This document shows positions 7,819 through 24,607 of a DNA stretch of 64,000 bases, piece by piece (position 1 is the stretch's first letter; each line of letters begins with the position of its first letter). The stretch is from positions 2,486-66,485 of the forward strand of contig JAGVXB010000033.1 in the NCBI GenBank assembly GCA_018303995.1, written 5' to 3'. This DNA comes from Candidatus Pacearchaeota archaeon. GTDB lineage: Archaea > Nanobdellota > Nanobdellia > Pacearchaeales > GW2011-AR1. The notes below the pieces were generated by a model. That model had not been told where the DNA came from. It saw only the letters and a program-made list of their open reading frames with translations, and did no database searches. A program made the position numbers and the translations under genes.

Positions 7819-8523
7819 ATGCAATTAAGCAAAAAAGAAAACAATGTATATGAAGAATTAAAAAAATTAAACTTAGAAGTCTTTACAATAAAGGACTTGA
7901 AATTAATCTTTAAGTTAGATTCAATCAAAGCATATAATATAATCAAAGCCCTTAAACGAAAAGGAGCAATCAAAAAAGAAAAAAGTATCTTTACCCTTAA
8001 AGGCACAGACCAATTCACAGTTGGAACATCTGCTCACTATCCATCTTACATCTCTCTATGGAGCGCATTAAACTATTATGGATGGAGCGATCAGACTCCT
8101 AAGAAAATTTTAATAATATCAACAAAATATGCAAAAGAAACCCGACAGTTCAAATATATAACTCTTAAAAACAAGAGATTTTTCGGTTATAATAAAATTG
8201 GAAATATAATAATTGCAGAAAAAGAAAAAGCAATAATAGATTCCATACTTTTTCCTAAATACGCTGGAGGAATAAAAGAAATATGCTCTTGTCTCAAAGA
8301 AGCATTTAACGAACTAAATAAAGAAAAATTGATAGATTATGCTCTAAAAATAGATAGTAAGGCTGTAATAAGAAGACTTGGTTTCCTATTAGAAACAAAT
8401 AATTATAAAAAAACAGCTGAATTAAAGAAAAATCTTGGTAAAGGCTATGAAAAACTTGACCCCTCATTAAAAAAGAAGAATAAACTAAATAAAGACTGGC
8501 TACTTGACATTAACACATCATGA
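7819..8523 (+). CDS. AbiEi-like antitoxin / transcriptional regulator (COG5340-type)
   Basis: 234 aa with an N-terminal wHTH (FTIKDLKLIF...AYNIIKALKRKGAIKKE). It overlaps the downstream AbiEii-like gene by 4 nt (ATGA). Confidence 0.65.
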   Translation: MQLSKKENNVYEELKKLNLEVFTIKDLKLIFKLDSIKAYNIIKALKRKGAIKKEKSIFTLKGTDQFTVGTSAHYPSYISLWSALNYYGWSDQTPKKILIISTKYAKETRQFKYITLKNKRFFGYNKIGNIIIAEKEKAIIDSILFPKYAGGIKEICSCLKEAFNELNKEKLIDYALKIDSKAVIRRLGFLLETNNYKKTAELKKNLGKGYEKLDPSLKKKNKLNKDWLLDINTS

Positions 8524-9266
8524 TAACAAGAGAAGAACTATCTGAAGCAAGTGAAAAAAGAAAAATCGGTTTATACTATGCTGAAAAAGAATATCTTCAG
8601 TATATTTTTCTCAACGCAATATCAAAATACTCAGACAAATTCTCATTTAAAGGAGGGACCTGTTTGAGAATTTGTTATGGTTTAGACAGAGCATCAGAAG
8701 ACCTTGACTTTAGCTCAACAACAAACATAAAAGAAACAAAAGAAATAGTAAATAAATGTTCAAAAGAATTTGAACACCTAAATATTAATCATCAAAAAAT
8801 AATAGAAAAAGAGCACAAAGACAATATTAGATTTGAGATTAGATTTGAAGGCCCTTTATTTTCAGGAAATCCCTCATCTACAAATACGCTGAAAATAGAC
8901 TTTAATAAACAAAAAACAATATATAAAACCGCAAAAGTAATTCAAAAAGTTTTCTCTGATGTTCCTATGTTTGTTATAATGGCGACAGATGAAAAAGAGA
9001 TTTTAGCTGAAAAAATAAGGACTCTTGCAAACAGAAAACAATCACGAGACCTCTACGATATTTGGATGCTAATCAGCAAAGGAGTAACTGCCGATAAAAA
9101 ACTTATAAATCAGAAATTAAAAGAAGAGAACAGTAACATCAAAAATATCACAATACCATCAAAAGAAGAATATGAATTAGATTTAAAGAACTTAGTCACA
9201 ACACTCCCGCCATATGAACAGGTAAAAACGGAAGTAATGAAGTTTATAGAATCTTTAAAATTATAA
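8520..9266 (+). CDS. AbiEii/AbiGii-family nucleotidyltransferase toxin (DUF1814)
   Basis: It carries the signature FKGGTCLRICYGLDRASEDLDFS, and later RDLYDIW. Confidence 0.8.
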   Translation: MITREELSEASEKRKIGLYYAEKEYLQYIFLNAISKYSDKFSFKGGTCLRICYGLDRASEDLDFSSTTNIKETKEIVNKCSKEFEHLNINHQKIIEKEHKDNIRFEIRFEGPLFSGNPSSTNTLKIDFNKQKTIYKTAKVIQKVFSDVPMFVIMATDEKEILAEKIRTLANRKQSRDLYDIWMLISKGVTADKKLINQKLKEENSNIKNITIPSKEEYELDLKNLVTTLPPYEQVKTEVMKFIESLKL

Positions 9267-9587: not shown

Positions 9588-9896
9588 CTAACTACAAACA
9601 ACTTCAGAACAATCATAATTACAATCTAAATTAAGAGAACTATTCTTACAATAAACATTCTTACCATCGACCTTAAATGGTTCGCAACAAAAAGTTCTAG
9701 AATCTTCGCCACGACAAGCAATCTCACAAGCCTGTTTAACAACATTATTTCTAGAAGTCTTCAAAACAGGCTCAGTTCCCTCTTTAAATAACCCAAACCC
9801 CTTCGTAATAAACACAACCAACCCAATAAGCACAACAATCCCTATAATTATCCATATAATTGTAGAAATCGCCATTTCCATTCCTTTTCTATTCAT
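9588..9896 (-). CDS. Pilin-like protein with class III signal peptide; Cys-rich ectodomain
   Basis: MNRKG|MEMAISTIIWIIIGIVVLIGLVVF. There are 10 Cys in the last ~60 residues. Confidence 0.55.
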   Translation of the reverse strand: MNRKGMEMAISTIIWIIIGIVVLIGLVVFITKGFGLFKEGTEPVLKTSRNNVVKQACEIACRGEDSRTFCCEPFKVDGKNVYCKNSSLNLDCNYDCSEVVCS

Positions 9897-9989
9897 ATAA
9901 AAACAAATTCAAAAGAGTTATTAAATGTAATCTAAAAAGCTAATTAAATCTATCCATAAAAACAACTCTAATTTATACCAATAATCCTA

Positions 9990-10532
9990 TTATCCATCTT
10001 CAGAAAGAATTGTTCCACCAGGCAAATCAGACAACGCAGTATCACTAACAGGAGGCGTCGTTTCAGTAGAAGGTGCTCCACCATCAATTATCACCTTACA
10101 ACTCACTTGTTTACCTGCCTTATAAGCAAGTATCTTTTCCTGTTTTGCTACTGAAACTAAACCCGCATCACTACAAGCATCAAACAAGAGATTCGCTTCA
10201 TCGCATTGCAAACCAGGGGCAGACGTATCAATATCATCTTTTTTAAGTGAGTCCATTATTGTCGGATGCCTGCAATTCACAAGTTCATTTCCAATCAGCC
10301 TATATTTACAAAAGTCAATATTAAAACCAACAGGAATATACACACTACCACAAGCCTTCGCAAGATTCTGCATCTCTCCCGTTTTATATTTTAAAAATCC
10401 AAATACGCCTTCACTAAAATTAATAACCCCTGACCCAACCAAACCGAGAAAAACAAGCGCAACCGCTGCAAGAACTATAAACCACATAATACCCTCAGCC
10501 CCCTTCTTACCCTTGACCACAATCACCATCAC
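9990..10532 (-). CDS. Pilin-like protein with class III signal peptide
   Basis: The N-terminus is ...VKGKKG|AEGIMWFIVLAAVALVFLGLV. The ectodomain has 6 Cys and a T/P/S-rich tail. Confidence 0.5.
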   Translation of the reverse strand: MMVIVVKGKKGAEGIMWFIVLAAVALVFLGLVGSGVINFSEGVFGFLKYKTGEMQNLAKACGSVYIPVGFNIDFCKYRLIGNELVNCRHPTIMDSLKKDDIDTSAPGLQCDEANLLFDACSDAGLVSVAKQEKILAYKAGKQVSCKVIIDGGAPSTETTPPVSDTALSDLPGGTILSEDG

Positions 10533-10576
10533 AACCTATAAGATAAGTTATTTATAAATCTTCTTCTATAATTAAT

Positions 10577-11047
10577 TTATACTAAATTAACTGAAATAAC
10601 TCTCTCTTTATCAAAAATAACTATCATAGAATAATTATACTTAACCTCATTTACTCCATAAAGACCATTTTCAAAAACATCATTAACAGTAAGAACATAA
10701 TTAATATTATCAAAACTAAGAGTATACTCTCCGTGAGCAAACCTAGCATAAATATTAGTACTCAGCCCTGAAAATCTCTCTCGATTGGCAATATCTTTAA
10801 CAGATTTATTAAAAGATTCTTCGAAATTATTTTTATCAGAAAGCTTTATAGCTTCAGCAACAATCTCACGAACATTCTTTTCAATAAGTTTATGCTCTGC
10901 CAAAGCTTTGCTTGTCATAGCTCTTATCTCCGCTTTGCTCTTACCCAAATCTTTTCCGAAAGTCCACATAACAAACAAAGCATTAATTACAATCATTAAA
11001 CTTAAAAGAACTATTAAAGCAGTCCCTAAATGTCCTCTACGATTCAT
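10577..11047 (-). CDS. Pilin-like protein with class III signal peptide
   Basis: MNRRG|HLGTALIVLLSLMIVINALFVMW. It overlaps the upstream gene by 4 nt. Confidence 0.55.
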   Translation of the reverse strand: MNRRGHLGTALIVLLSLMIVINALFVMWTFGKDLGKSKAEIRAMTSKALAEHKLIEKNVREIVAEAIKLSDKNNFEESFNKSVKDIANRERFSGLSTNIYARFAHGEYTLSFDNINYVLTVNDVFENGLYGVNEVKYNYSMIVIFDKERVISVNLV

Positions 11048-11538
11048 GTATTGCTCCTTTTTACAAAAATATCAATGCGATTACAAATTCTCTTCACAGA
11101 TTTTTCATCATTATAATCAACTATTTTATTAAATGCATCATAATCAGATATATCTCCATTCATATCAATATAATTATCCACGGCACCAGCCCACGATATT
11201 ATTTTAATCGAACCATCGTCATCTAGAGTATAAGACAAAATAAAAATACTTCCTCGGCCATATTCTTCAACAAAATGTTCTCTCAAAGATACCTTTAATT
11301 TTTCACCAAAATCTGCATCATCACAAAATCTATCAATAAGTGTTCCAACCTGAACAACTTCATCATTAAACACGAGATAAGTGTTCATAAAATCCTCAGG
11401 CATATTTTCGCTTATTTCATGATTCTTAGCAATAGCTCCTGCAACAATCACAAAAAGCAACATTACAATAAACATAATCACCATGCCAATTGGACTCGCA
11501 ATTGCCTGTTCCAAACTAAATTCTGCTTTTCGGTTCAT
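11044..11538 (-). CDS. Pilin-like protein with class III signal peptide
   Basis: MNRKA|EFSLEQAIASPIGMVIMFIVMLLFVIVAGAIA. It overlaps the upstream gene by 4 nt. Confidence 0.5.
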   Translation of the reverse strand: MNRKAEFSLEQAIASPIGMVIMFIVMLLFVIVAGAIAKNHEISENMPEDFMNTYLVFNDEVVQVGTLIDRFCDDADFGEKLKVSLREHFVEEYGRGSIFILSYTLDDDGSIKIISWAGAVDNYIDMNGDISDYDAFNKIVDYNDEKSVKRICNRIDIFVKRSNT

Positions 11539-11996
11539 ACTGCAACCCTCTTCACATTTTGACTGCTTCCAACTAAAAACTCATATCCTTCAGAATCAAT
11601 AGGATGACTTGCACACAAAGGCATCTCTCTATTCTTAAATCTGGCATAAAGTCCGCACCTCATTTTAAAATCTGCAACCCCAACAACAAATTCTTTGTTG
11701 TTTTTATCTTTCACATAAACAATATGTTTTCCATCCTCAATAACTGACTTGCTAATTCCACACTTTTGAAAAAAAATGTCTTCATTTAAATTGCTTAAAT
11801 CTAATTTTTCTCTTTCAAAACATTCACGCACGCTCTTCAATAAAGCCCTTGCTTCTCCTTCTCTATAATCATACCCTTTTCCAAAAAACGCGACAAGCCC
11901 TCCAACTATTCCAACAACAAGAATAACAACAAACATTGAAAAAAACACAATATATAAAATACCCACTCCAGTAACTTCTCCTCGCCTACAATTCAT
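11535..11996 (-). CDS. Pilin-like protein with class III signal peptide
   Basis: MNCRRG|EVTGVGILYIVFFSMFVVILVVGIVGGLVAF. It overlaps the upstream gene by 11 nt. Confidence 0.55.
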   Translation of the reverse strand: MNCRRGEVTGVGILYIVFFSMFVVILVVGIVGGLVAFFGKGYDYREGEARALLKSVRECFEREKLDLSNLNEDIFFQKCGISKSVIEDGKHIVYVKDKNNKEFVVGVADFKMRCGLYARFKNREMPLCASHPIDSEGYEFLVGSSQNVKRVAV

Positions 11997-12414
11997 TGCG
12001 TTGCTTCTCCTTTATTTTAAATATAAATTGCGTAGTTTCTGGACTTCCAGAAGGATTTTTTACTTCCCAATCAACAATATCTACATCATTAAAAAACCCA
12101 AAACTAGTTCCAGTGTCTTTTCTGGTGCTTACAGTAATTTGATTATTCACATTATTAACATAAATAATATCCTTAACAGGCTTACCATTTTTAATAGCAA
12201 TCATCGCAAGTTTAGTAATATCTATCTTAAACTCCATTCCAGGCTTTGCATTATTTATTAAATTAATAATTTCTTTAGAATAAAAATCCTCATAAAAAGC
12301 ACTTCCTCGACCATAAGAATTAACATACATAAAAAGCCCAATAAAAACAGAAATGCATATAGCAGTATATATCAAATTATACATCATAACATCTACATCG
12401 CCTCTTCTTTCCAT
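11986..12414 (-). CDS. Pilin-like protein with class III signal peptide
   Basis: MERRG|DVDVMMYNLIYTAICISVFIGLFMYV. Confidence 0.5.
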   Translation of the reverse strand: MERRGDVDVMMYNLIYTAICISVFIGLFMYVNSYGRGSAFYEDFYSKEIINLINNAKPGMEFKIDITKLAMIAIKNGKPVKDIIYVNNVNNQITVSTRKDTGTSFGFFNDVDIVDWEVKNPSGSPETTQFIFKIKEKQRNEL

Positions 12415-12450
12415 AATTAAACTAATAATTCAACAGATATAAAGATAACG

Positions 12451-13104
12451 TCACATTCCTGGAAGACTTATCCCATATGTTTTATCATCTTTGATATTAC
12501 AGTTCTCATCTCTTATACGCGATAAAAATTTACCGCCTTCACTTAAAGCAGTCAAAACATCATTCTTTCCACTTATTGCTGTTTGTTTCTGATCACCATA
12601 ATCATGATAAATTGAAATTTCTCCTAGTTTTTTATCCACAAGAAATCCCATTAACTTATTAATTTCAGGAATGCAATGACTTGTAATCAAACCATCAACA
12701 TTTTCAGGATCATAAGGAGAATAATTAAGCCTGCTAGAGACACTAACCTTCCTATCAATATCTTTACAATAACCAGTATCTTGACACTTAGAAACATCCC
12801 CCTGACAAATACACAAACAATTCTTATCAAAACATCTCTGAGGTTTTTCATCTGGAGGCACTTCTTTATTCCATGCGACCAAAACCCAGCCTTGAACACC
12901 TCTTAAGGCAAAAGTATTGCTCTGTCCATCAGCAAGATTCTCAATCCTCCCATTCAAATTATCTAAAAATATTCTCGCATTTCTAGCATCCTGATCCATA
13001 AAAAACAAAATCAATTTTACAGCTATAAAAATAAGTCCAACTGCAACAATTATCCCAACAATCAACGAAGTTAAAGCTTTTGCATCGCCTTTTCTAAATT
13101 TCAT
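12451..13104 (-). CDS. Pilin-like protein with class III signal peptide; Cys-rich ectodomain
   Basis: MKFRKG|DAKALTSLIVGIIVAVGLIFIAV. It contains the Cys cluster CFDKNCLCICQGDVSKCQDTGYC. Confidence 0.55.
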   Translation of the reverse strand: MKFRKGDAKALTSLIVGIIVAVGLIFIAVKLILFFMDQDARNARIFLDNLNGRIENLADGQSNTFALRGVQGWVLVAWNKEVPPDEKPQRCFDKNCLCICQGDVSKCQDTGYCKDIDRKVSVSSRLNYSPYDPENVDGLITSHCIPEINKLMGFLVDKKLGEISIYHDYGDQKQTAISGKNDVLTALSEGGKFLSRIRDENCNIKDDKTYGISLPGM

Positions 13105-14291
13105 AAATTACCTTCAATGCCTCCAGAACAAAGCTTATTTACTTCTCCAACATCCCATTTAACAGGTTTAATCAAACTACATCCAAGTTTAGAATCAGTC
13201 TCATTTTTTCCATATTCCTTACATGAAAGAAGTGAAACCTCCTGATTTTCTTCCTGAACTCCAGCAGCAGTATATCCTGCGATTGCCGAAGCACCAACAC
13301 CAACAAGAATAGCTGAAATAACTCCAACCCAACCACTTTTTACTATGCCTGCGCCAGCACCAGTGACTAAAGTCCCTCCTACAATAGCAGTTCCAGTCAA
13401 CCCTGCCGCAGTCCATCCCAACTCTCCAGGAGGTATGTCCGTCTTAATTTGCATAAATATCATCGCAATCTGATCCGTCTTAACAGAATCTTTAACGCCA
13501 GACAACGTTTTTTCCAATTCAATACGATTACTATCTACAAAACTCCTTATGCGCCCATTTGTAAATACTTCTGAATAAGTTTGACTACCACCATCAGGAA
13601 CAAATTCGGTAGAAAGATACCTGCTAAAATCAAGTCTTGAAAGAACATTTATATTTTTTTCATCAACTAACTTTTCATTCGCCTCAATCAATTTATCAGA
13701 TAACGCAACTCTAGAACAAACAATACATTTTGGTTCTATTTTCTTTATTACTTGTTCTAATCCAAGCCCGAAAAATTCCGAAATATCTCCCAATACGATT
13801 GAAGTCACTCCCCCCTCGCCTCTGAAAACATCTAACTTTCCTTCTCCAGTCATAACCCAGCAGTCATACATTGCATTTGCGTATTCTCTTTCAATAATTT
13901 TCCTAGTTTCTTTCTGATCCCCAATGTCATCATTTATCTTAACTTTAATATCTACAACATTCTCTTCCCCTGCAAATTGTTTACAATCACTTTTTTTAGA
14001 CAATCCAATAGCAGCACCAGAACCAGTAAAAAACTCCTTAGCCTTCTGAGTAACTGACTTGTCTAAAGTTATGCAAATCTTCTTAGTAAAACAGTTCAAA
14101 GGCGCTCCTCCCTGGACTATTCCAGGAAGAGTAGCTTTAGAGATAATAGAAAGTTTACACAAATCTCTTTCAGTCACATCTTTAGTCCCAAAAATACTCC
14201 AAAGAAACATTACAACAATAGCAAAACTAAGAAGAATAAGTATTAAAAGAGCTATCTGTCCTGCAGTAAATCCTCTCTTATCCATAAACAA
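13101..14291 (-). CDS. Large pilin-like/class III signal peptide protein with a C-terminal Gly-rich hydrophobic segment
   Basis: (MF)MDKRG|FTAGQIALLILILLSFAIVVMFLW. The late segment GWTAAGLTGTAIVGGTLVTGAGAGIVKSGWVGVISAILVGVGASAIAGY is hydrophobic and Gly-rich. Confidence 0.5.
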   Translation of the reverse strand: MFMDKRGFTAGQIALLILILLSFAIVVMFLWSIFGTKDVTERDLCKLSIISKATLPGIVQGGAPLNCFTKKICITLDKSVTQKAKEFFTGSGAAIGLSKKSDCKQFAGEENVVDIKVKINDDIGDQKETRKIIEREYANAMYDCWVMTGEGKLDVFRGEGGVTSIVLGDISEFFGLGLEQVIKKIEPKCIVCSRVALSDKLIEANEKLVDEKNINVLSRLDFSRYLSTEFVPDGGSQTYSEVFTNGRIRSFVDSNRIELEKTLSGVKDSVKTDQIAMIFMQIKTDIPPGELGWTAAGLTGTAIVGGTLVTGAGAGIVKSGWVGVISAILVGVGASAIAGYTAAGVQEENQEVSLLSCKEYGKNETDSKLGCSLIKPVKWDVGEVNKLCSGGIEGNL

Positions 14292-14320
14292 AACACTAAA
14301 ACCAACTTTATAATCTTAAC

Positions 14321-14437
14321 TTAACGCAATCCAAATCTCTTAAAAAGAAAATAAATAGAAGCCCCTGCAAGTATCAGAAACATAATCCACAATACAAGTT
14401 TTGTAATGCTCTCAAATGCAAAACCTTTTTTATTCAT
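14321..14437 (-). CDS. 38-aa minimal pilin-like ORF (Flp-like candidate), not in the ORF track
   Basis: MNKKG|FAFESITKLVLWIMFLILAGASIYFLFKRFGLR. Its ATG lies 1 nt after the stop of the upstream gene. Confidence 0.45.
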   Translation of the reverse strand: MNKKGFAFESITKLVLWIMFLILAGASIYFLFKRFGLR

Positions 14438-14438
14438 T

Positions 14439-15758
14439 TTATTGAACATTTGCCTCCTTACTATCTTCAAATTTAAAACTTGAATAATAATTGTCTAAAA
14501 CCTTATATGTAAATTCACTGCGAAGTGAATCATTCAAAACACTATTAAATTCTTTACCATCAATTTTTTTTAATAATTCGTTCCAACCATCAATTTTTTT
14601 ACCATTAATATAAACGCCTTCGACTGATTTATCTGAATCAAAAGTAACGGAGTTTTGCCAAAACAAGCCATCATCAGGTCTAGTTAAAAGTACAAAACCT
14701 TCGTTGAAATTTTTATTATTTAACTCCTTATAAATGCTATCAAGATATTTTACCTGTACATACAAATTAAGATCTCTATTTGAATTAATAATTGAATTTA
14801 ATTGGTCGCCACGGCTAAACCTCCAATTTTTAACACCGTTGTCTTCTTTAGAATATTTCAATATTTCAATCTTATTCCTTTCAAGAAAACTGTGCGCACT
14901 ACGTCTCAAAAATACAAATTTAATCTCTTCGGGTTCTTTAGTAATTTTTATATCATCATCTACATAATTCTTAACACCAAAACAAGACTCATTTTTCCAT
15001 TTCTCAACAGCCACTCCATAAACCGGCTCGCTCAAATCAACAAAAATATATTGACCAACTTTGCGAACAGTATACAATTTCTTACCCATTCCTTTCTTAT
15101 TCTCATCTAAATTCAACTCCAAAAACCTCTCACAATTTCCATCTTCAAGAATACTATCTCTCCAACTAATTGCTTGAACAAATTTATCTTTATACTTATT
15201 GTATTCCTGAAATGCTAAAACATAAAATGAATAATCTACTTTAACTATATCTGAAATTTTATCATTATAATAAATGGGTTCATTATAAAGATCTTTTACT
15301 TTGAATCTTTTTTTAATATGACTAGCTATTTTGAGATTATATCGATTCAGATTATCATATCCAAAATCGCCAATTTCGACGACCCAATATCTCCAATCAT
15401 TCACACTAATACTCAAAGCTTTGGGTCTCCTTTCAGAATATAGATAAAAATCTTCGATAGATTTCTTAAACAAAGCAGGCTCAAACTCATATTTTCCCAT
15501 CGGAAATAACTCGCCGTTTTTTTTAGAATTAATATCTCTCCACTCCTCACCAGTATAATACTGCAATTGATCATCTTTAAGATTCACTCCTACTATCGAA
15601 GTCCCATCGGAAATAGGCTCTCCAAAATCATCAGGAAAAAATCCAAAAAAAGAATAAATACTCTTAAACATAGGAATCTGCGATGAAAAATACAAAGCAA
15701 TAAGTAAACCTGCTAAAATGGCGGCAACAACCCAATAATGCAAACCATTCCTATTCAT
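14439..15758 (-). CDS. Large (439 aa) pilin-like/class III signal peptide protein
   Basis: The track ORF starts at 15773 (MEIWEMNRNG). I prefer ATG 15758 because it forms an ATGA overlap with the upstream mini-ORF. That start gives MNRNG|LHYWVVAAILAGLLIALYF. Confidence 0.5.
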   Translation of the reverse strand: MNRNGLHYWVVAAILAGLLIALYFSSQIPMFKSIYSFFGFFPDDFGEPISDGTSIVGVNLKDDQLQYYTGEEWRDINSKKNGELFPMGKYEFEPALFKKSIEDFYLYSERRPKALSISVNDWRYWVVEIGDFGYDNLNRYNLKIASHIKKRFKVKDLYNEPIYYNDKISDIVKVDYSFYVLAFQEYNKYKDKFVQAISWRDSILEDGNCERFLELNLDENKKGMGKKLYTVRKVGQYIFVDLSEPVYGVAVEKWKNESCFGVKNYVDDDIKITKEPEEIKFVFLRRSAHSFLERNKIEILKYSKEDNGVKNWRFSRGDQLNSIINSNRDLNLYVQVKYLDSIYKELNNKNFNEGFVLLTRPDDGLFWQNSVTFDSDKSVEGVYINGKKIDGWNELLKKIDGKEFNSVLNDSLRSEFTYKVLDNYYSSFKFEDSKEANVQ

Positions 15759-15877
15759 CTCCCAAATCTCCACAAATTCTTAAAAAATTCAAGCATACCA
15801 CTTCCCTTTTCCTTGGCAAGAATAATCAAAGCAACCAACAAAATCAAAGCTCCTATAACCATTATCCAGTCTGCCAT
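15755..15877 (-). CDS. 40-aa single-TM ORF, first gene of the pilin-like operon, not in the ORF track
   Basis: MADWIMVIGALILLVALIILAKEKGSGMLEFFKNLWRFGR. Its TGA overlaps the next ATG. Confidence 0.35.
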   Translation of the reverse strand: MADWIMVIGALILLVALIILAKEKGSGMLEFFKNLWRFGR

Positions 15878-15940
15878 ATGACTAATTTCAATTTGACCCT
15901 TTTTCCCCATCAACAACAAAACAAATACATCAATATAAAT

Positions 15941-16396
15941 CTAATCCTTTCTAATATACTTCCCCATTATTATTCCTTTTCCCCAATCATTATGCATTTT
16001 CTCTCCAGTTTTGTGATATCCAAGCTTCTCATAAAACTCAACAGCAGAAAGAACAGCAACAAGCCAGACATTTGAAAAACCCTTCAATACAGCATCCCTT
16101 TCTAAAGCACCCACAAATTCCCTCCCCAGTCCTTTTCCTTGATATTCTGGAAGTATAAAACAAGCCATTATTTCGTCATTGCGCAATGTAGCAGTTCCAG
16201 TAATTTTCTCATTATCAGTAGAGACATAAATTATTTTGTGTTCTAAATCCTCACAAAATCTTTCAGCCGTATAATAAGAAGCACTCGAATCTATTTGTTC
16301 ACGAGTATAGTTATGATTATCTCTCTCAATAATAGCCCTTCGTATTAAAGGATGTATTTCAATAATATCAGGCATTCTGAATTTTCTTATAGCCAT
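15941..16396 (-). CDS. GNAT family N-acetyltransferase
   Basis: The acetyl-CoA motif is LPEYQGKGLGREFVGALE...FYEKLGY. Confidence 0.8.
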   Translation of the reverse strand: MAIRKFRMPDIIEIHPLIRRAIIERDNHNYTREQIDSSASYYTAERFCEDLEHKIIYVSTDNEKITGTATLRNDEIMACFILPEYQGKGLGREFVGALERDAVLKGFSNVWLVAVLSAVEFYEKLGYHKTGEKMHNDWGKGIIMGKYIRKD

Positions 16397-16511
16397 TGTT
16401 CACAAAAATCAATAATACCATCTATATATAAACAATTGCAAAATCAGACAAACTTGAAATAAAGAAACATACAATTTAATAATATAAGAAACCGTAATTT
16501 TCATAAGAGGC

Positions 16512-18668
16512 ATGATGGTAACAACTGAAGAAATTCTAAAAAAATACTCCCGTAAAATAGAATCTGAAATAGGTATAAAAAAATCAACAGAAATCTATTC
16601 TCAAGACTACGAACAATTCAAACAAGACATGCTCCCAGATATGTCCAGATACAAAAGATGGACAGATTCTCTAGGAAATGCAATAAAAATAAAACTATCG
16701 GCTAAAGAAAATGCAAAAATCCAACGCCATTTAGATATAGCCCATTTAGACATAACTGCATCTCAGTCAGCATCCTTGGCACTAATAGCAATGCTTCTAA
16801 CTTTATTCGTAACTTTCACATTAGTTCTAAGCATAAATCTTCTAGGAGAATCATTTCCAATAATGCTCACATTTTTAGGATTTATCTTAAGCGGTTTTGT
16901 ATATTACTACGTTTACTCCATGCCAGACAGATTAGCAAACATATGGAGATTAAAAGCATCCTCCCAAATGATTCCAGCCATCTTATACATTGTTATCTAC
17001 ATGAAACACACTTCAAATTTAGAAAGAGCCGTCCAATTTGCCTCAGAACATCTTGAAATTCCTTTAGCACTAGATTTCAAAAAAGTTTTATATGATGTAG
17101 AAACAGGAAAATACCAAACAGTAAAACAATCTTTAGACGCCTATCTAGAAACATGGCGTGATTACTCCCCTGAGTTCATAGAATCATTTCACTTAATAGA
17201 ATCCAGCCTATACGAACCATCAGACACTCAAAGAATTAACACGTTAGAAAGAGCCTTACAAATAATTCTAGACGGCGTTTACGACAAAATGCTTACATAT
17301 TCGAGAGAGATTCGCTCACCTTTAACAAACATCTACATGCTTGGAATTATATTACCAACATTAGCTCTAGCCCTTTTGCCTCTAGCCAGCGTAGTCATAG
17401 CAAACGGCTTAAAATGGTATCATCTTATTATAATCTTTAATTTGATTATCCCATTAGGGGTTTACTTCATGACTTCTGAAATACTATTCAAACGTCCAGG
17501 AGGCTACGGAGAAAACTCAAACATTAAAAAAAATCCCCAATACTATAATTTCATTTCAAAAAAGCCATGGGCAATCGCAGGCTTAATTTGTATCCCTATA
17601 TTTATCATAGGACTATTGCCATTTTTATTTCAAAGTGATTTTATCACAAATCTCTTAAATCTAAAAAATGATTATACATTCGGCGAGTTAGGCCTATCTT
17701 TTTTTGAAGAACAACTTCTATTTGATTTCAAAAAAGTAGGAAGCAGTACAATAGGTCCATTCGGATTAGCAGGAATAATACTAAGTTTATTCATCCCTCT
17801 TTCAATAGCATTATTCTTCAGCTTAGCATACAAACTCAAAACAAAAGAAATAATAAAATCACGAAAAGAAACTAAAGAATTAGAACATGAATTCACAAGC
17901 ACTCTATTCCAATTAGGAAATCGTTTAGGCGACGGAGTTCCAGCAGAAAGAGTATTTTCAAAAGTAGCAGAATCAACTCAAGGCCAGAAAACTCAAAGTT
18001 TCTTTCAATTAGTAAATCAAAACATCCAACAATTAGGTATGCCTTTAGATGATGCAATATTCAATTCTCAAAGAGGAGCAATAATTTACTATCCATCTGC
18101 ACTCATCTCCACAAGCATGCGCATTTTAATAGAATCAGTAAAAAAAGGATTAAAAATAGCCGCAAGAGCAATGATGTCAATTTCAGACTATGTAAAAAAC
18201 ATTCAAAAAATAAATGACAGGTTAAGAGATTTATTAGCAGAAGTAGTTTCAGACATGCGCTCAAACATGGTATTTCTAGCCCCATTATTATCAGGAATAA
18301 TAGTAGGATTAACGTCAATGATTGCACTAATACTCAACAAACTAAAGAGTCTATCAAACTTAACTGGTGAAGGAGGTGCAGAAATCCCTGGATTAGGTTC
18401 AATGGGAAACATAATAGATTTATTTGATATTACTGGGATAGTCCCCCCTTATTTTGTCCAAATATCAATAGGAATCTACTTAATAGAAATAATTTTCATC
18501 TTAACAGGAACTTTAGTAACTGTAGACTCAGGAAAAGACGAATTACAAGAAAAATATGAATTATCTAGAAACCTAAAAAGAGGCTTAACATTATATCTCA
18601 TCACAACTCTCTTAAGCACAATCATGTTAACAGGCTTAGCAGCCGTAGCCCTTTCAGGATTAGGTTAA
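16512..18668 (+). CDS. FlaJ/PilC/TadC-like polytopic platform protein (two T2SS-F-like domains)
   Basis: 718 aa. Two soluble helical domains (about residues 150-270 and 450-560, e.g. ELEHEFTSTLFQLGNRLGDGVPAERVF...GMPLDDAIF) are each followed by TM clusters. It sits next to the secretion ATPase. Confidence 0.6.
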   Translation: MMVTTEEILKKYSRKIESEIGIKKSTEIYSQDYEQFKQDMLPDMSRYKRWTDSLGNAIKIKLSAKENAKIQRHLDIAHLDITASQSASLALIAMLLTLFVTFTLVLSINLLGESFPIMLTFLGFILSGFVYYYVYSMPDRLANIWRLKASSQMIPAILYIVIYMKHTSNLERAVQFASEHLEIPLALDFKKVLYDVETGKYQTVKQSLDAYLETWRDYSPEFIESFHLIESSLYEPSDTQRINTLERALQIILDGVYDKMLTYSREIRSPLTNIYMLGIILPTLALALLPLASVVIANGLKWYHLIIIFNLIIPLGVYFMTSEILFKRPGGYGENSNIKKNPQYYNFISKKPWAIAGLICIPIFIIGLLPFLFQSDFITNLLNLKNDYTFGELGLSFFEEQLLFDFKKVGSSTIGPFGLAGIILSLFIPLSIALFFSLAYKLKTKEIIKSRKETKELEHEFTSTLFQLGNRLGDGVPAERVFSKVAESTQGQKTQSFFQLVNQNIQQLGMPLDDAIFNSQRGAIIYYPSALISTSMRILIESVKKGLKIAARAMMSISDYVKNIQKINDRLRDLLAEVVSDMRSNMVFLAPLLSGIIVGLTSMIALILNKLKSLSNLTGEGGAEIPGLGSMGNIIDLFDITGIVPPYFVQISIGIYLIEIIFILTGTLVTVDSGKDELQEKYELSRNLKRGLTLYLITTLLSTIMLTGLAAVALSGLG

Positions 18669-19072
18669 GAATTGATTATTCCAAATAGTTCTTCAGGTTT
18701 TATTATTTTAATACCTCTAAATTCTTTTAATATTAGCAAATGCCTTAAGTCATAAGTTATAATAAATTCAGAGTTAGATACCACAGCACACTCCAAAATC
18801 TTATTATCATCAGAATCCTCTTTTATTACCTCTATTTTCTCAATTGGTTGAACGAGCTTAGCAAACATCATCACAAAAGGAATAATTTCCTGAATTTCTA
18901 AGTAAGAATAATCAAAATCTCTCATAAGAATTCCACTAAATTCATCAATTATCTCTTTACTAACAAAAAGAGGGTCGTTTCTTTCTATAAGTTTAACAAG
19001 TAATTTATTAGCAACACTATAATCCCATTGCGTAGCAGAAATAAGAAAATTTGTATCTAATGTAATCCTCAT
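18665..19072 (-). CDS. vapC: PIN-domain toxin (VapC-like)
   Basis: MRITLDTNFLISA...DDNKILECAV...IITYDLRHL has the acidic PIN residues. It overlaps the upstream antitoxin gene by 4 nt. Confidence 0.75.
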   Translation of the reverse strand: MRITLDTNFLISATQWDYSVANKLLVKLIERNDPLFVSKEIIDEFSGILMRDFDYSYLEIQEIIPFVMMFAKLVQPIEKIEVIKEDSDDNKILECAVVSNSEFIITYDLRHLLILKEFRGIKIIKPEELFGIINS

Positions 19073-19350
19073 AAGTTTTTAATTTTAGATTTTCTGTATG
19101 CATGAACAAGATCATCTACATCACTCTCTTTTATTCCTAATTTTTCAGCCCTTTTCGCACCATTAGCAGCTATTTTTTGCAAGTTTCTTATTAACTCTTC
19201 TTTAGAAGGCACTTCTATTTTCTTTAGGACTATGGAGTCTCCACTACTTAAGACTACAAAAACACTTCCTTCATCAGCATTTACTTCTTCCCTTACTTTT
19301 TGAGGAATTACAATCTGTCCTTTTGAAGACATTCTAACAGTTTCAACCAT
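19069..19350 (-). CDS. vapB: AbrB/SpoVT-type antitoxin (VapB-like)
   Basis: MSSKGQIVIPQKVREEVNADEGSVFVV is a swapped-hairpin AbrB motif. Confidence 0.8.
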   Translation of the reverse strand: MVETVRMSSKGQIVIPQKVREEVNADEGSVFVVLSSGDSIVLKKIEVPSKEELIRNLQKIAANGAKRAEKLGIKESDVDDLVHAYRKSKIKNL

Positions 19351-19411
19351 GTAAGAAAGTAAGATATGCTTACTTATAAATCTTTCGAATTAATAAAAAT
19401 AAAATCAAACC

Positions 19412-19723
19412 CTAAAACTTCATCTGAGGAGTCTGAGGTTCTATATTAGCAATTCTTCCATCTAAAACTCCAATTATGACTTCTTCTTCAGCATATCCAT
19501 TTACATAAGCTTCTCTAAGTGAAGGATGAAGTTCATTAACATCAACTTTTCTCCCATAAAAAGTTTCAGGAAAAGATTCCTTTCGTCCAAATGGTCCATA
19601 TTTAGGCAAATCAGTAGAATTATTCCTATCAAAACCGCAATAAGCAATTCCTGCTAATCCAATTAAACCTGCAAAAACAAGTCCTAAATTTCTTTTATTT
19701 TTCATACTAAATCTTCCTAACAT
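19412..19723 (-). CDS. Small N-terminally anchored protein
   Basis: MKNKRNLGLVFAGLIGLAGIAYCGF. It overlaps the 3' end of the ATPase gene by 17 nt. Confidence 0.4.
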   Translation of the reverse strand: MLGRFSMKNKRNLGLVFAGLIGLAGIAYCGFDRNNSTDLPKYGPFGRKESFPETFYGRKVDVNELHPSLREAYVNGYAEEEVIIGVLDGRIANIEPQTPQMKF

Positions 19724-21965
19724 TATTCATCAACCAGCTTCTCCATTCCGGAAAAACGCGATCAGAAACAGGCAAACCAATTTCATGAGTAATTTTTTCA
19801 CTTATGCGATGAAACATATCATTCGATAAAGCATTGAACTTCGCTTCCATTAAAGAAGGCATCTGCAACTTTCGAGCAACATCAACAATCTCCTGCTTAA
19901 TCTTGGCGCGTAATAAAATATTATCCCAAACGGCATCCCAATTTCCAGCCCATCCTTTAACACTTCCAGCAATTGCCTTCACAATCTCAGAATCTCCATT
20001 CATCAAATCTTCCGTAGGTTCAAGCTCATCTTTCTCAACATTATATTTAATCAAATCAACAAATCCCTTTTCCTCTTCAGGGTCTTTAAGCCAATGCTTT
20101 CTAACTTCAGTCAATTGAGTAACTCTCTTCTTATAATGCATCCCATCTGGAGTCCTAATCGGATTAGCAACAACTACAATATCAGTTGCCTTAAAACTCG
20201 TTACAGGAACTCCTAAATCATTTACAACCCTATCAAAAACACCATAAGGAGAAGCTCCGTGAATAGTCCCAGCAACTAAATTAGCCAAAGCACCAACTCT
20301 CATCGCTTCATAAAGTGCCTTAGCTTCACTTGATCTAACTTCTCCAACAATTAAAGCAGAATCTCCCAAACGAAGTGAAGCACGTATACCTTCAGAAGCC
20401 TCAACTTCAGTAGTCGCCTCAAGCAATGCGCTTCGAACTTTCATTCTCTGAATATTATAACCAAGTTTTCGCAAAGAATCCACACTTAACTCTAAAGTAT
20501 CCTCTACCACCAACATTCTAACAGAAGGAATTACTTCAAGCATAACGCTCCCCAAAAGTGAAGTCTTTCCTGAAGAGCGAGTCCCCGCAATTAACATAGT
20601 CCTATTCCCATCAACAATAAAACTCATAAGCCCAGCAGTAAAAGAATTAATCATTTTATTCTCAATAAAGAGAGGAAGAGTCCATGGCTCTTCTCTATGC
20701 CTACGTAAAGCATAAGCAATTCCCGTCGGAGAAAGAGGGCGCTGTATAGCAGCAACCCTTGCCCGTATATTTCCAAAAAATATGTCCGTATCTAATATAG
20801 GATTAGCCTCGTCCAAAGGACGACCGCTCTGCAAACGAAGTTTAGAAGCCCATGAATCAGCATCTTCATAAGAAGGCAAAATGTTAGTAACACAATCTCC
20901 ATATTTAGCATGCCTAACAAAAACATAATTCTGTCCTATCGGCGAATTCAAAAAAATATCTTGTAATTTATCATCAAAAAGCAAAACCTCAACTAATCCA
21001 AAACCAATAGTCTGTCTGACAAGAATTCTAGCAAGACTATTTAGCTCTCGGTAATTTAAAGGAATATTTTTATTCACAGACAACTCGGAAAGTAAGTCGC
21101 GCGCAACATTAAAAAAAAGCGAGCGTACTTTCTCAGAATCAACAAACTCCTCAGATTTAGGTTGATACTCTAACAAAACGCCCTTTCCAAGATTAAGTAA
21201 AAGATGATGTTCTTCGCTCAAAGCATATTCCGGAGGCATAATGTGATAAAGATATTTTGCATCTCCCTGAACTTTCAATATCATCACAGAAACACTTTCA
21301 AAACCAGACTTCAGTTCATACTGGTCCATAATCTCCGCATCTTGAGGCATCTGAGCAACAAGACGGGTAAGTGTAAAATTAGGCAAAATGTCAGGCCTAA
21401 AAATAGAATAATAAACCTTGCGATCTCCAATAGCATACGTATCAACAACATCAATTAAAGAAGATATTAGTCTAGTCTTTAACAATAACTCTCTAAACCT
21501 ATCAAGAACTCCAAGATAAGCATCAAAATGTCTCGAGTCTTTTAAATTTCTATTATATACTCCAATTCTTTTAATAACCTCAAGATAACAAGCAACAGGA
21601 TCCTGCCTCAAAAGACTAAGCAAATAACTCAACTCACGAGGCGCAAATTCTAGATTAATAAAAAGATTAAGTTTATCGGGCGCAAGAATTCTTTCTTGTT
21701 TAAGCAAAAAAGTATATAACTGAGATATCTCCAAAAGAATAGAAACTTGCTCAAAAGGATAATTATAATTTCTCTGTTGCACAAAAACTATTCTCGAAAC
21801 CTCAGGATTATCAGTCAAAGCATCAACGGCACGAGCCATAGTCTCTGCAGAATCTGCAATAGACGGAACGCTAGAAGCACCTAAATAATTAATATATAAA
21901 ATAGTTTCCCCCTCCTTACGCTGTATTTCTGTGGAATACGCCGGAGCATTAAGTTTAAACACCAT
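19707..21965 (-). CDS. Type II/IV secretion system ATPase (FlaI/PilB/TadA-like) with a long N-terminal region
   Basis: The motifs are Walker A LIAGTRSSGKTS (Lys about residue 467), Asp box VVEDTLEL, Walker B ALIVGEVRSSEA and His box AGTIHGASP. Confidence 0.85.
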   Translation of the reverse strand: MVFKLNAPAYSTEIQRKEGETILYINYLGASSVPSIADSAETMARAVDALTDNPEVSRIVFVQQRNYNYPFEQVSILLEISQLYTFLLKQERILAPDKLNLFINLEFAPRELSYLLSLLRQDPVACYLEVIKRIGVYNRNLKDSRHFDAYLGVLDRFRELLLKTRLISSLIDVVDTYAIGDRKVYYSIFRPDILPNFTLTRLVAQMPQDAEIMDQYELKSGFESVSVMILKVQGDAKYLYHIMPPEYALSEEHHLLLNLGKGVLLEYQPKSEEFVDSEKVRSLFFNVARDLLSELSVNKNIPLNYRELNSLARILVRQTIGFGLVEVLLFDDKLQDIFLNSPIGQNYVFVRHAKYGDCVTNILPSYEDADSWASKLRLQSGRPLDEANPILDTDIFFGNIRARVAAIQRPLSPTGIAYALRRHREEPWTLPLFIENKMINSFTAGLMSFIVDGNRTMLIAGTRSSGKTSLLGSVMLEVIPSVRMLVVEDTLELSVDSLRKLGYNIQRMKVRSALLEATTEVEASEGIRASLRLGDSALIVGEVRSSEAKALYEAMRVGALANLVAGTIHGASPYGVFDRVVNDLGVPVTSFKATDIVVVANPIRTPDGMHYKKRVTQLTEVRKHWLKDPEEEKGFVDLIKYNVEKDELEPTEDLMNGDSEIVKAIAGSVKGWAGNWDAVWDNILLRAKIKQEIVDVARKLQMPSLMEAKFNALSNDMFHRISEKITHEIGLPVSDRVFPEWRSWLMNNVRKI

Positions 21966-22464: not shown

Positions 22465-22788
22465 ATGGTTCAGGAGTATCAGCAGTCGGAAGGGCAATAT
22501 TATACAGACATTAACGGTCGCTTAAAAGATATGGAAGAAAAGCAAAGACTGCTCAGAGATAGAATATTATTAATAGGAAAAAATGTTATTGAGGACCGTG
22601 AATCAATAATGAATGAGTTGCAAGAATTAAAAAAAAGCTTGTCTAAAACAGCAGAGGAAAACATTAAAATACAGGATTTCCTAAAGAAAGTTGCAGATCA
22701 ATTATCTGAATCTGCAAGAAAAGAGGAACTACTAATGCTACAACGCCAAATCGAACTATTTATGACTGCGCATGGGAGGGGAAAGTAA
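22465..22788 (+). CDS. Coiled-coil protein
   Basis: 107 aa with a heptad-like, charged sequence. Its stop overlaps the next ATG by 1 nt (TAATG). Confidence 0.45.
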   Translation: MVQEYQQSEGQYYTDINGRLKDMEEKQRLLRDRILLIGKNVIEDRESIMNELQELKKSLSKTAEENIKIQDFLKKVADQLSESARKEELLMLQRQIELFMTAHGRGK

Positions 22789-23420
22789 TGGGAATTTTAG
22801 AAGAAATTCAGCGAATGCAACAATCAGGCTTATCAGAAGAAGAAATAATTTCAAAACTTCAAGAGCAAGGAAATCCTTATCGAGATATATCTGAAGCAAT
22901 GGCGCAAAGTAAAATAAAACAAGCAGTCGAAGACCGCAGCAGTATCCCAGAACCTCCAACCCCTAGTGATTCTCAAACCCAAGGAATGCAACAATCAATA
23001 ATACAACCCCCACAACAAGAAGCACCTCAACAAGAATACTTTCCAGAACAACAAGAATTTCAAAACCAAGGAGCTGAATATGTGCAACAAGGATACGATT
23101 CTGGACAGTCTTCTAGCTTAAGCAGCGACACAATAATGGAAATTTCAGAACAGATAGTGTCTGAAAAAATGACAGATATTAGAAAAAAAATGGAAAAAAT
23201 ATCTATATTCAAAACAGAACTTGAAACAAAAACAGAATCAATAGAAGAACGCCTTAAGCGAATAGAAAAAATAATTGACACGTTACAGACTTCAGTTCTC
23301 AGAAAAGTAGGAGACTATGTCACAAACGTCGAAGACTTAAAGCATGAAATGATTGAAACTCAAAAAACATTTGCAAAAGTTCTAGGTTCAAAGCATCACG
23401 AAAAAGAACATAAAAAATAA
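22788..23420 (+). CDS. Protein with a helical N-domain, Q/P-rich linker and C-terminal coiled coil
   Basis: The N-terminus is MGILEEIQRMQQSGLSEEEIISKLQEQGNPYRDISEAMAQSKIKQ. A QQ/PQ-rich low-complexity region follows, then a coiled coil. Confidence 0.45.
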   Translation: MGILEEIQRMQQSGLSEEEIISKLQEQGNPYRDISEAMAQSKIKQAVEDRSSIPEPPTPSDSQTQGMQQSIIQPPQQEAPQQEYFPEQQEFQNQGAEYVQQGYDSGQSSSLSSDTIMEISEQIVSEKMTDIRKKMEKISIFKTELETKTESIEERLKRIEKIIDTLQTSVLRKVGDYVTNVEDLKHEMIETQKTFAKVLGSKHHEKEHKK

Positions 23421-23438: not shown

Positions 23439-23984
23439 TTATTTCTTAGCCGGAGTAATTCCACCAGTCTTCCACAAAAACCAAGTAACAAAAATAGCAA
23501 CGCCAATCAGTAAAAAGAAACCTTTGACTTGTGGAGAATATAACCAACTAAAAAAATAAACTAATGTAGGATTCCCATTAGAAACCTGCGAACTAGTTGC
23601 CGTAGGCAGATAGGGACTCACAGAATTAGAAAATACCTTTATTCCAGAAACTAAAAAAATTAAAATTAAAATGACAACAAAAACCCACCCCATACTCTTA
23701 CTTACTATAGATTTTCCAGAATCCCCCATAAATCCAACAAGAGCCATAATCAAAAATAACGCAATAAGCAAAACAGCAAACCAAGGAATAACATTCAATA
23801 CAAGTTGCTTAATACTAGAAGCCGTTATGAATATTGTCGCAATAACAAAAGAAAGAAAAATATTCATATACATATTTTTCCCAATTAATTCAGTCTTATG
23901 CAACAAAGCAACCATTATTACAAACACAACTAAAAATACCATCACGGGCGCAAAATAAACAAATGAAGAAACGTCGGCTGCCAT
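23439..23984 (-). CDS. Polytopic membrane protein, paralog family member 3
   Basis: It shares the N-terminal pattern (hydrophobic helix, then ALLHKTELIGKNMYMN) with the next two genes. Confidence 0.5.
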   Translation of the reverse strand: MAADVSSFVYFAPVMVFLVVFVIMVALLHKTELIGKNMYMNIFLSFVIATIFITASSIKQLVLNVIPWFAVLLIALFLIMALVGFMGDSGKSIVSKSMGWVFVVILILIFLVSGIKVFSNSVSPYLPTATSSQVSNGNPTLVYFFSWLYSPQVKGFFLLIGVAIFVTWFLWKTGGITPAKK

Positions 23985-23986
23985 GA

Positions 23987-24607
23987 TTAACTGCGAATTG
24001 CCTTTATTTCCCCAGCATATACCTTATTTTCTGCAGATCTCGCATCTGCACCTTTAGGCTCTCTAAAGAATTGCAAAAGAATCACAAATAAAACAGCAAT
24101 CCAAGCTATAGAAACCCAATTCTGTTGCCACCAGAAGGAACCAAACCAAGCAAAACTATTCAAAACAGTAATCACTATAATCAAACCCACGACAATCCCT
24201 CCCCAGAAGAATGTAGGCATCCATTCGTGAATATTCCCTTGAGACATAAAAAGCCCTGCTAGAATCAAAACAACAACAATAACTACAATACCTATTCCCA
24301 AACCAGGAAGAAGCAAACCAAAGAAATCTGAAACTACTTGCAACCTCATAGCCATCAATGCAGCAGAAGCAGCAATTATAGAATTAACTCCTTTATTTCC
24401 TCCAAGAACCTTAGTCGAAGTCAAAATACCAAATATAACTGAAAAAATAAGAAGTGCTGGAAGTAAAAAATCAAACACTCCAGAAGTCTCCCATTGAGCA
24501 TATAAATCATATAAAGAAAAGAACTGCATGAAAGCACCTAACATAACCATGTTAAAGAAATACAAACTTTCTTTAAATATGTTTCGCCGGGAGTTATTAC
24601 AGTACAA
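23987..24607 (-). CDS. Polytopic membrane protein, paralog family member 2
   Basis: LLPALLIFSVIFGILTSTKVLGGNKGVNSIIAA. The true start is probably an internal Met (MQFF...). Confidence 0.5.
   Translation of the reverse strand: MYCNNSRRNIFKESLYFFNMVMLGAFMQFFSLYDLYAQWETSGVFDFLLPALLIFSVIFGILTSTKVLGGNKGVNSIIAASAALMAMRLQVVSDFFGLLLPGLGIGIVVIVVVLILAGLFMSQGNIHEWMPTFFWGGIVVGLIIVITVLNSFAWFGSFWWQQNWVSIAWIAVLFVILLQFFREPKGADARSAENKVYAGEIKAIRS

Follow-up and report, generated by a model that had tools for sequence, protein, structure and literature searches.

The question raised by the locus described here is what kind of type IV filament machine is carried by an archaeon of the DPANN group (kingdom Nanobdellati), and which proteins that machine would assemble. 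The locus lies in a 64-kb stretch of DNA (positions 1–64000, referred to below as the window) from a Candidatus Pacearchaeota metagenome-assembled genome, and holds genes for an assembly ATPase, a platform protein and a prepilin peptidase, an array of eleven pilin-like genes, and four probable accessory genes beside the ATPase gene. A preliminary description of this DNA had proposed a complete type IV filament kit other than an archaellum. Both parts of that proposal are borne out by the ATPase, the two-domain T2SSF platform, the A24 peptidase and the many proteins with a class III signal peptide (SPIII), and by the lack of archaellum signatures discussed below. The locus is best explained as the form taken in Pacearchaeota by a type IV filament machine, other than an archaellum, that occurs across DPANN.

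The locus was surveyed by scanning one genome per species, which gave 398 loci with a relative of the ATPase. Counts given below out of 82 refer to the best 80 of these 398 (ATPase 56–87% identical to that of the window) together with two more loci. Distant DPANN relatives were compared through four further loci (L084, L086, L088 and L089), while the contigs of L083, L085 and L087 were too short for use. Two contigs carrying the archaeal locus (L034 and L063) are filed under Bacillota and Patescibacteria bins, probably through binning errors.

Core enzymes of the filament locus

The three core genes are as follows.

19707–21965, minus strand: assembly ATPase, 752 amino acids (aa), FlaI/GspE/CpaF (VirB11-like) family; T2SSE match, matches to solved structures, motifs
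16512–18668, plus strand: platform protein, 718 aa, polytopic, with two divergent T2SSF (GspF/PilC/TadC) domains; T2SSF matches across the family, AlphaFold2 model and Foldseek
5650–6513, minus strand: A24 prepilin (class III signal) peptidase, FlaK/PibD-like; PF01478 match, alignment with FlaK

The ATPase scores 51.5 bits against Pfam T2SSE (PF00437; cut-off 24.9) and possesses the Walker A, Asp box, Walker B and His box by which membership of the T2SSE/VirB11 family is recognized. The length of 752 aa and the motifs quoted in the preliminary description were all found in their places, with GTRSSGKT at residues 461–468 (Walker A, Lys 467), VVEDTLEL at 486–493, LIVGEVRSSEA at 538–548 and GTIHGASP at 566–573. 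Its top relative among solved structures is Archaeoglobus fulgidus GspE (PDB 2OAP, E 5.8e-27, query residues 207–600), followed by structures of CpaF (E 5e-24; 87.5 bits, against 97 for GspE) and by FlaI (PDB 4II7, E 8.6e-16). Matches to the NCBIfam equivalogs TadA (TIGR03819, 122 bits, cut-off 373) and FlaI (NF058587, 113.6 bits, cut-off 550) are partial and fall under the cut-offs, and the match to the bindosome ATPase BasE is weak (62 bits, cut-off 1000). The protein has an N-terminal extension of about 200 aa, and a profile of the first 290 residues found no relative in the PDB. This long N-terminus had been considered atypical, but a length of about 750 aa and the extension are kept in every close homologue and in the distant DPANN relatives, and N-terminal extensions specific to each subsystem are the norm for non-archaellum archaeal filament ATPases, minimal archaellum ATPases being without them (Sivabalasarma and Albers, 2026; bioRxiv 10.64898/2026.04.22.720090).

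Two further observations concern the ATPase gene. Three Pacearchaeota homologues of the protein (P0021, P0031 and P0107) are about 1260 aa long and contain intein as well as LAGLIDADG domains (PF14890, PF14528), the copy in the window being free of inteins. The 3' end of the gene shares 17 nt with an open reading frame (ORF) of 103 aa at 19412–19723, for which the 82 loci contain no homologue. With its single hydrophobic stretch at the N-terminus (…GIAYCG…), the product could be a small membrane protein restricted to this lineage or a lipoprotein, unless the ORF is not a real gene.

The platform protein, labelled "hypothetical" in the database, has about 9 hydrophobic segments and belongs to a family with 1023 relatives among the 1.8 billion representative proteins searched. 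Within that family T2SSF is matched by 21 of 63 diverse full-length members (best E 3.2e-10), and in the ten members inspected closely the match falls in the N-terminal half, the C-terminal half or both, two of these being above the cut-off. The AlphaFold2 model of the window protein (predicted local distance difference test, pLDDT, 79; predicted template modelling score, pTM, 0.77) ranked the PilC model 3jc8 top in Foldseek, and the cytoplasmic domains of EpsF and OutF were matched with a probability of 0.99–1.0 and template modelling scores of 0.64–0.71. A profile built from 33 close orthologues matched no sequence in the PDB, one from the 63 diverse members found EpsF alone (E 0.42), and comparison of the N- and C-terminal halves by hhalign gave nothing with close orthologues and a weak match with diverse members (E 0.024). 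The earlier reading of this protein as a duplicated T2SS-F domain is therefore right by virtue of the family matches in both halves and the structure model, though not demonstrable from the window sequence alone. In the window's clade the platform gene points the opposite way to the genes for the ATPase and the pilins, whereas in more distant Pacearchaeota (compared with loci L028–L082) it runs in their direction. One distant relative (L086, 25–6863) has two full-length platform paralogues, of 740 and 711 aa, on either side of the ATPase gene.

The peptidase, also anticipated in the preliminary description, scores 39 bits against Peptidase_A24 (PF01478; cut-off 26.5) and aligns with FlaK (PDB 3S0X, E 3.8e-6) across both catalytic motifs, VQD (D37) and GGD (D99), so that both catalytic Asp residues are present. 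In about 18 relatives its gene lies immediately 3' of the last pilin gene, and the peptidase is ancestrally part of the pilus operon. A 100-aa protein encoded near it (4144–4446) has an N-terminal transmembrane helix and a Cys-rich tail without a basic leader; no homologue was found in related loci.

The array of pilin-like genes

The eleven genes of the array are listed below, with an arrow marking the end of the putative leader.

15755–15910, minus strand: p01, 51 aa, prepilin-like, MGKKG↓QIEIS..., mature form of about 46 aa, a helix with a short basic tail ("headless"); leader kept in 29 loci, no Pfam match
14439–15758, minus strand: p02, 439 aa, prepilin-like, MNRNG↓LHYWV..., candidate adhesin; SPIII-like N-terminus, no Pfam match
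14321–14437, minus strand: p03, 38-aa mini-protein, MNKKG↓FAFES..., mature form of about 33 aa; leader kept in the window's clade
13101–14291, minus strand: p04, 394/396 aa, prepilin-like, MDKRG↓FTAGQ..., 10 Cys; detected in 39 loci
12451–13104, minus strand: p05, 217 aa, prepilin-like, MKFRKG↓DAKAL..., 8 Cys; detected in 28 loci
11986–12414, minus strand: p06, 142 aa, prepilin-like, MERRG↓DVDVM...; detected in 36 loci
11535–11996, minus strand: p07, 153 aa, prepilin-like, MNCRRG↓EVTGV..., 4 Cys; detected in 33 loci
11044–11538, minus strand: p08, 164 aa, prepilin-like, MNRKA↓EFSLE..., acidic ectodomain; detected in the 7 closest loci only
10577–11047, minus strand: p09, 156 aa, prepilin-like, MNRRG↓HLGTA...; detected in 14 loci
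9990–10532, minus strand: p10, 180 aa, prepilin-like, …KGKKG↓AEGIMW..., 6 Cys, N-terminus like that of p11; identified by leader scan and orthologues
9588–9896, minus strand: p11, 102 aa, prepilin-like, MNRKG↓MEMAIS..., 8 Cys; detected in 34 loci

These genes do form a co-directional minus-strand series that mostly abuts or overlaps, as was first described, but the upper end given at 15877 does not stand, the first gene running to 15910/15919. The junctions measure -4, -4, -11, -4, -4, +1, +29, +36, +44 and +93 nt, and co-translation is therefore implied. All eleven proteins passed a scan for a leader followed by a helix (M-x(0-10)-[KR][KR]-G/A, then an uncharged hydrophobic stretch). Seven further matches in a six-frame translation of the rest of the 64 kb were mostly spurious, coming from internal starts and wrong-frame ORFs, and such N-termini are essentially absent among the other real genes of the window. 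In agreement with the class III signals proposed earlier, orthologues preserve a leader with G/A at -1 in ten families, p03 alone being an exception. The number of candidate substrates has nevertheless to be raised from ten to eleven, because the start previously chosen for p01 skipped the leader MGKKG↓Q that is conserved in its orthologues (...KKG↓Q).

An all-against-all BLAST of the ectodomains detected no paralogy, and the orthologue sets of p10 and p11 cross-hit one another. The ten Cys residues of p04 are invariant across an alignment of 55 sequences, which would fit an extracellular disulfide-bonded domain, and the AlphaFold2 model of this protein (pLDDT 74) has a pilin-like N-terminal helix (residues 8–32) followed by an alpha/beta ectodomain. 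The best candidate for the shaft or major pilin is p11, on the grounds that it is short, that its orthologues bear the classic motif KRGQ↓GLSTNAIILI, that in some loci the platform gene is immediately followed by the p11 gene, and that p11-like genes form tandem triplets in the distant relatives L088 and L089.

The size and mixture of this gene set had been regarded as atypical, along with the Cys-rich ectodomains and the long ATPase N-terminus, but all three features are family-wide instead of peculiar to this locus. Large, mixed pilin sets are moreover known from the Epd cluster of Methanococcus maripaludis and from "system 2" loci (bioRxiv 10.64898/2026.04.22.720090).

Conservation across DPANN and neighboring genes

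The synteny expected in relatives was found, with the order ATPase, platform, p01 to p11 and peptidase recurring across the 82 loci and the platform gene, always single, adjoining the ATPase gene in 67 of them. Both a platform gene and a downstream peptidase gene were found in 21 loci; between the two, 18 of these have 5–10 scanner-positive genes, and the other three (L068, L071 and L079) have none, the peptidase gene directly following the platform gene. With this synteny and the conserved G/A at -1, the outcomes that would have overturned the preliminary description did not occur. The machine and its putative substrates differ strongly in rate of divergence. Across the seven genomes nearest to it, identity to the window proteins is 80–85% for ATPase and platform but 24–66% for the pilin-like proteins, and p02, among the fastest-diverging, is 28–36% identical where the ATPase is 68–85% identical. 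In a collection of 5.8 billion proteins the closest non-self homologue of p04 is 52% identical, against 93% for the ATPase. A slow motor with fast substrates is as expected of proteins that would be exposed, host-facing and involved in host recognition.

Distant DPANN relatives with platforms only 25–34% identical have the same architecture, with an ATPase of about 750 aa, a platform of about 700 aa and an array whose SPIII proteins are partly small and partly very large, and platform homologues are labelled Woesearchaeota, Aenigmarchaeota, Nanohaloarchaeota and "DPANN group". The system is DPANN-wide and not Pacearchaeota-specific, because the same architecture occurs in these distant and differently labelled relatives. 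The large SPIII proteins of the distant arrays include one of 445 aa with a VWA domain and others of 877, 860 and 526 aa. Modular proteins of this kind lie at L084 16718–18055, at L088 13982–16615 and at L089 8963–10273, 13111–14691 and 15534–18116, some of them with faint CARDB/MopE or TSP3 matches. These modular proteins recall the modular adhesin pilins of Gram-positive bacteria.

Four genes next to the ATPase gene probably belong to the pilus system as well, judging by their conserved position.

22465–22788, plus strand: coiled-coil protein, 107 aa, probable accessory, divergent from the ATPase gene; adjoins the ATPase gene in 70 of 82 loci
22788–23420, plus strand: coiled-coil protein, 210 aa, with a helical domain at the N-terminus and a coiled coil at the C-terminus, joined by a Q/P-rich linker, probable accessory; 68 of 82 loci
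23439–23984, minus strand: polytopic membrane protein, 181 aa, about 5 transmembrane segments, probable accessory; 63 of 82 loci
23987–24607, minus strand: polytopic membrane protein, 206 aa, paralogue of the 181-aa protein, probable accessory; 63 of 82 loci

L088 and L089, whose platforms are 34% and 32% identical to that of the window, have all four (E 7e-11 to 1e-3), with neither order nor orientation changed. The 107-aa protein has homologues beside the ATPase in L084, L088 and L089 (E 1.1e-8 to 3.7e-5), the 210-aa protein has correspondingly placed homologues in the last two of these (E 6e-7 and 7e-11), and the families of the 206-aa and 181-aa proteins cross-hit in L088 and L089. In L084, whose platform is 25% identical, the 107-aa protein alone of the four has a significant homologue (E 5e-7); after it come a weakly similar coiled-coil protein and, encoded on the other strand, a membrane protein of 188 aa. 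Pfam returned only generic coiled-coil noise for the accessory proteins and their distant homologues. Mere collinearity of the genomes was considered as an explanation for this arrangement and rejected, since the arrangement is the same in relatives with 25–34% platform identity.

Several genes in and around the locus appear to be local additions. A PIN/MazE-type toxin-antitoxin pair is inserted between platform and ATPase (18665–19350) and an AbiEi/AbiEii pair (7819–9266) is a second toxin-antitoxin insertion in the pilus locus, both being absent from most relatives. A GNAT acetyltransferase gene (15941–16396), which separates the platform gene from that of p01, is a local insertion found in the closest relatives only (5 loci). 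Elsewhere in the window, a 525-aa protein (31814–33391) is probably a further surface protein, since it has Ig-like domains of bacterial type (Big_13, Big_3_3), and the other genes are archaeal housekeeping genes, including those for PolD DP1/DP2, Orc1/Cdc6, Hef and ribosomal proteins. The GC content is about 33%. GC skew is below zero in all 2-kb bins from 1 to 64000, and the cumulative skew falls steadily to -7.5 without a switch. The tRNA and Rfam scans found no tRNA gene and no Rfam match in the 64-kb window. The ATPase and p04 products are present at NCBI as proteins with locus tags of the form J4423_*.

Proposed function and comparison with known systems

The gene content suggests the following mechanism. 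Eleven membrane-inserted precursors, each with a basic leader of 5–11 residues ending in [KR][KR]-G/A, would be trimmed by the FlaK/PibD-like A24 aspartyl peptidase. A hexameric ATPase with its family-specific N-terminal domain of about 200 aa would power the two-domain T2SSF platform, which would extract the trimmed N-terminal helices from the membrane and pack them into a surface filament. The shaft would probably be built from a single small protein or very few of them, p11 together with the related p10 being the best candidate and the "headless" p01 a possible one, and the larger Cys-rich set (p02 and p04–p09) could form a complex for minor-pilin priming, a tip or an adhesin. Two cytoplasmic coiled-coil proteins and two small polytopic membrane proteins would provide a probable accessory scaffold, and the most likely job of the filament would be attachment to a host cell or surface.

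It is considered probable that the locus encodes a working type IV filament machine and that this serves above all in adhesion or contact with a host, and host contact in particular is plausible. Enrichment of Pacearchaeota in the >2.5 μm size fraction has been taken to indicate tight attachment to hosts (He et al., 2020; bioRxiv 10.1101/2020.05.14.094862). A number of observations weigh against this view of the locus. None of the eleven array proteins matches a pilin or any other family in Pfam or NCBIfam, and the archaeal pilin families of Pfam (PilA-type N-terminal) gave no match at E ≤ 0.1. Foldseek of the p04 model found no structural relative, pilins included, in the PDB or the viral BFVD, and the same protein has a Gly-rich hydrophobic segment near its C-terminus that is unusual for a pilin. 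Distant Pacearchaeota orthologues of p03 begin directly with the helix, the basic leader being absent, and p03 is for this reason uncertain as a peptidase substrate. The window platform on its own scores 15.5 bits against Pfam T2SSF, below the cut-off of 25.2. The peptidase gene of the window is displaced 3 kb from the array by an AI-2E transporter gene (6601–7578) and the AbiEi/AbiEii pair. No member of the array stands out clearly as the major pilin. The homology of the three core enzymes, the leader motifs with their conservation, the synteny and the fast divergence of the substrates are shown directly, whereas leader cleavage, assembly of a filament, what each protein does and a function in adhesion are inferred from the genes.

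The same machine could instead be chiefly a competence-like pilus that takes up DNA or nutrients for an organism without nucleotide biosynthesis, with adhesion being secondary. Natural transformation in some archaea needs type IV-like pili. Import of DNA by pili has been proposed for DPANN (PMC9563170), and adhesion and uptake cannot be distinguished from sequence, no result of the present analysis separating the two, which also counts against a firm assignment to adhesion. Genes for ComEC-like proteins, DprA or nucleases were found neither within nor beside the locus, be it in the window or in those related loci that were inspected, and the many large, fast-evolving Cys-rich ectodomains, together with the VWA-domain SPIII protein of a relative, fit the binding of variable targets better than that of DNA. 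Uptake as the main role is considered unlikely. It is somewhat harder to credit that no long filament is made, and that a short pseudopilus or envelope-anchored array, comparable to the Sulfolobus bindosome or the type II secretion pseudopilus, displays or secretes surface proteins. The heterogeneous substrates, several with large ectodomains, the lack of an obvious abundant major pilin and the weak BasE match of the ATPase would agree with this, and the extra C-terminal hydrophobic segment could retain p04 in the membrane. The BasE score is, however, far under its cut-off, no match to a substrate-binding protein was found in Pfam or NCBIfam among the eleven SPIII proteins, and there are small p11-like proteins that start like classic pilins, with tandem copies in relatives. 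Such a short structure is judged quite improbable.

A divergent archaellum, that is a motility organelle, is extremely improbable. The alignment of the ATPase to FlaI and the FlaK-like peptidase point in its direction, but the FlaI score lies far below the equivalog cut-off and the ATPase has the N-terminal extension that minimal archaellum ATPases lack (bioRxiv 10.64898/2026.04.22.720090). There was also no Pfam match to archaellin (PF01917), ArlH/KaiC, ArlF/G, ArlX or ArlCDE in the scanned pilin-like and neighboring proteins, the unscanned ORFs of the window being housekeeping genes by eye, and no archaellum genes were seen in the related loci inspected. To return to adhesion and host contact, a bolder form of this explanation would be that the fast-evolving Cys-rich SPIII set, including p04 with its novel fold and Gly-rich hydrophobic hairpin, constitutes a tip complex that determines host range on a filament contacting or penetrating the host envelope, with the four accessory proteins giving a DPANN-specific architecture distinct from all characterized archaeal pili. 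This form is speculative and rather unlikely, but if it were true, divergence of the pilin set would track host switching in Pacearchaeota.

As the motor type is already known across DPANN, the new part is the cognate pilin set, which is ordered, conserved, fast-diverging and missed by annotation pipelines, and the advance is modest but real. Cognate pilins were not found in nanoarchaea (Makarova et al., 2016; PMC4858521), DPANN pilus clusters without annotated pilins were described in 2022 (PMC9563170), and type IV pilus components were treated as "missing in DPANN genomes", pili being used as a marker of bacteria of the candidate phyla radiation (CPR) in groundwater (He et al., 2020; bioRxiv 10.1101/2020.05.14.094862). 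The present locus accounts for this apparent lack, its platform and every one of its substrates being named "hypothetical" in annotations and scoring under Pfam thresholds. Pacearchaeota are among the DPANN with the most reduced metabolisms, are apparently tightly attached to hosts and have so far had no assigned attachment apparatus. The locus offers concrete candidates, namely a probable shaft pilin, about ten candidates for minor pilins or adhesins and four accessory proteins, for proteomics, cryo-electron tomography and host-range studies.

Among known systems, bacterial Tad/Flp pili (CpaF/TadA, TadB/C, TadV, Flp) resemble this one in their CpaF-matching ATPase and short pilins, and public annotations name the partners CpaF and TadB/C. 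The organism here is, however, a single-membrane archaeon, and the TadA score is below its cut-off. Membership of the Tad family was rejected, given also that Flp, TadZ and secretin were not seen: p01, p03 and p11 have no match to the Flp/Fap families of Pfam, and no TadZ or secretin was found among the scanned neighbors. The Epd pilus of M. maripaludis (system 1, clade 1) likewise has many pilin-like genes, a dedicated peptidase and very short "headless" pilins, with which p01 and p03 may be compared; these two are headless like Flp and EpdE pilins, yet without a sequence match to either. Unlike in Epd, the platform here is one 718-aa gene product and the peptidase is FlaK-like rather than clearly of the 9-transmembrane EppA type. 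The "Tad/Epd-type" label of the preliminary description is doubtful, because the platform is unsplit and the best structural relative of the ATPase is A. fulgidus GspE rather than CpaF. More remote are the conserved pili of Saccharibacteria, ultrasmall obligate episymbionts of the CPR, which have been shown to mediate host binding (PMC9894109; PMC12206443); these are a functional analogue, their machinery being of the bacterial type IVa pilus kind (PilB/PilT/PilC) and unrelated beyond the shared superfamily.

Two conserved type IV pilus-like loci (CpaF, TadC) with DPANN-specific coiled-coil proteins are described from cluster 2 DPANN by Hamm et al. (2024; PMC11291902), who name Pacearchaeota, Woesearchaeota, Nanoarchaeota, Aenigmarchaeota and Nanohaloarchaeota as carriers. 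Products of the loci were detected there by proteomics in Ca. Nanohaloarchaeum antarcticus, filament proteins being shown for one locus only. The present locus is like those in its CpaF-like ATPase, TadC-like platform and adjacent coiled-coil proteins, the likeness being one of described architecture; the coiled-coil proteins of that paper include NAR1_03220 and NAR1_01690. The platform family was found under four of the five lineage labels named there, with no Nanoarchaeota label among those looked up, and a distant coiled-coil homologue gives a weak nucleoporin-TPR match of the kind mentioned in that paper. The array of 8–11 SPIII genes and the two small membrane proteins go beyond the description in the text consulted.

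Two archaeal types may be compared here, namely system 1 (Epd), in which the platform is split into two genes, and system 2, in which one gene encodes the platform, the ATPase is N-extended, and pilins occur in some number beside adhesin-like proteins of large size and further membrane proteins (bioRxiv 10.64898/2026.04.22.720090). System 2, which corresponds to Makarova clade 2 (Haloferax PilB3-PilC3 with PilA1-6; A. fulgidus GspE), shares with the window locus the single-gene platform, the N-extended ATPase, the several SPIII pilins, the large adhesin-like proteins and the extra membrane proteins, and differs in that the pilins here have no PilA-type Pfam match and the peptidase gene is ancestrally in the operon. 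Judged on gene architecture, system 2 is the closest match to this Pacearchaeota machine.

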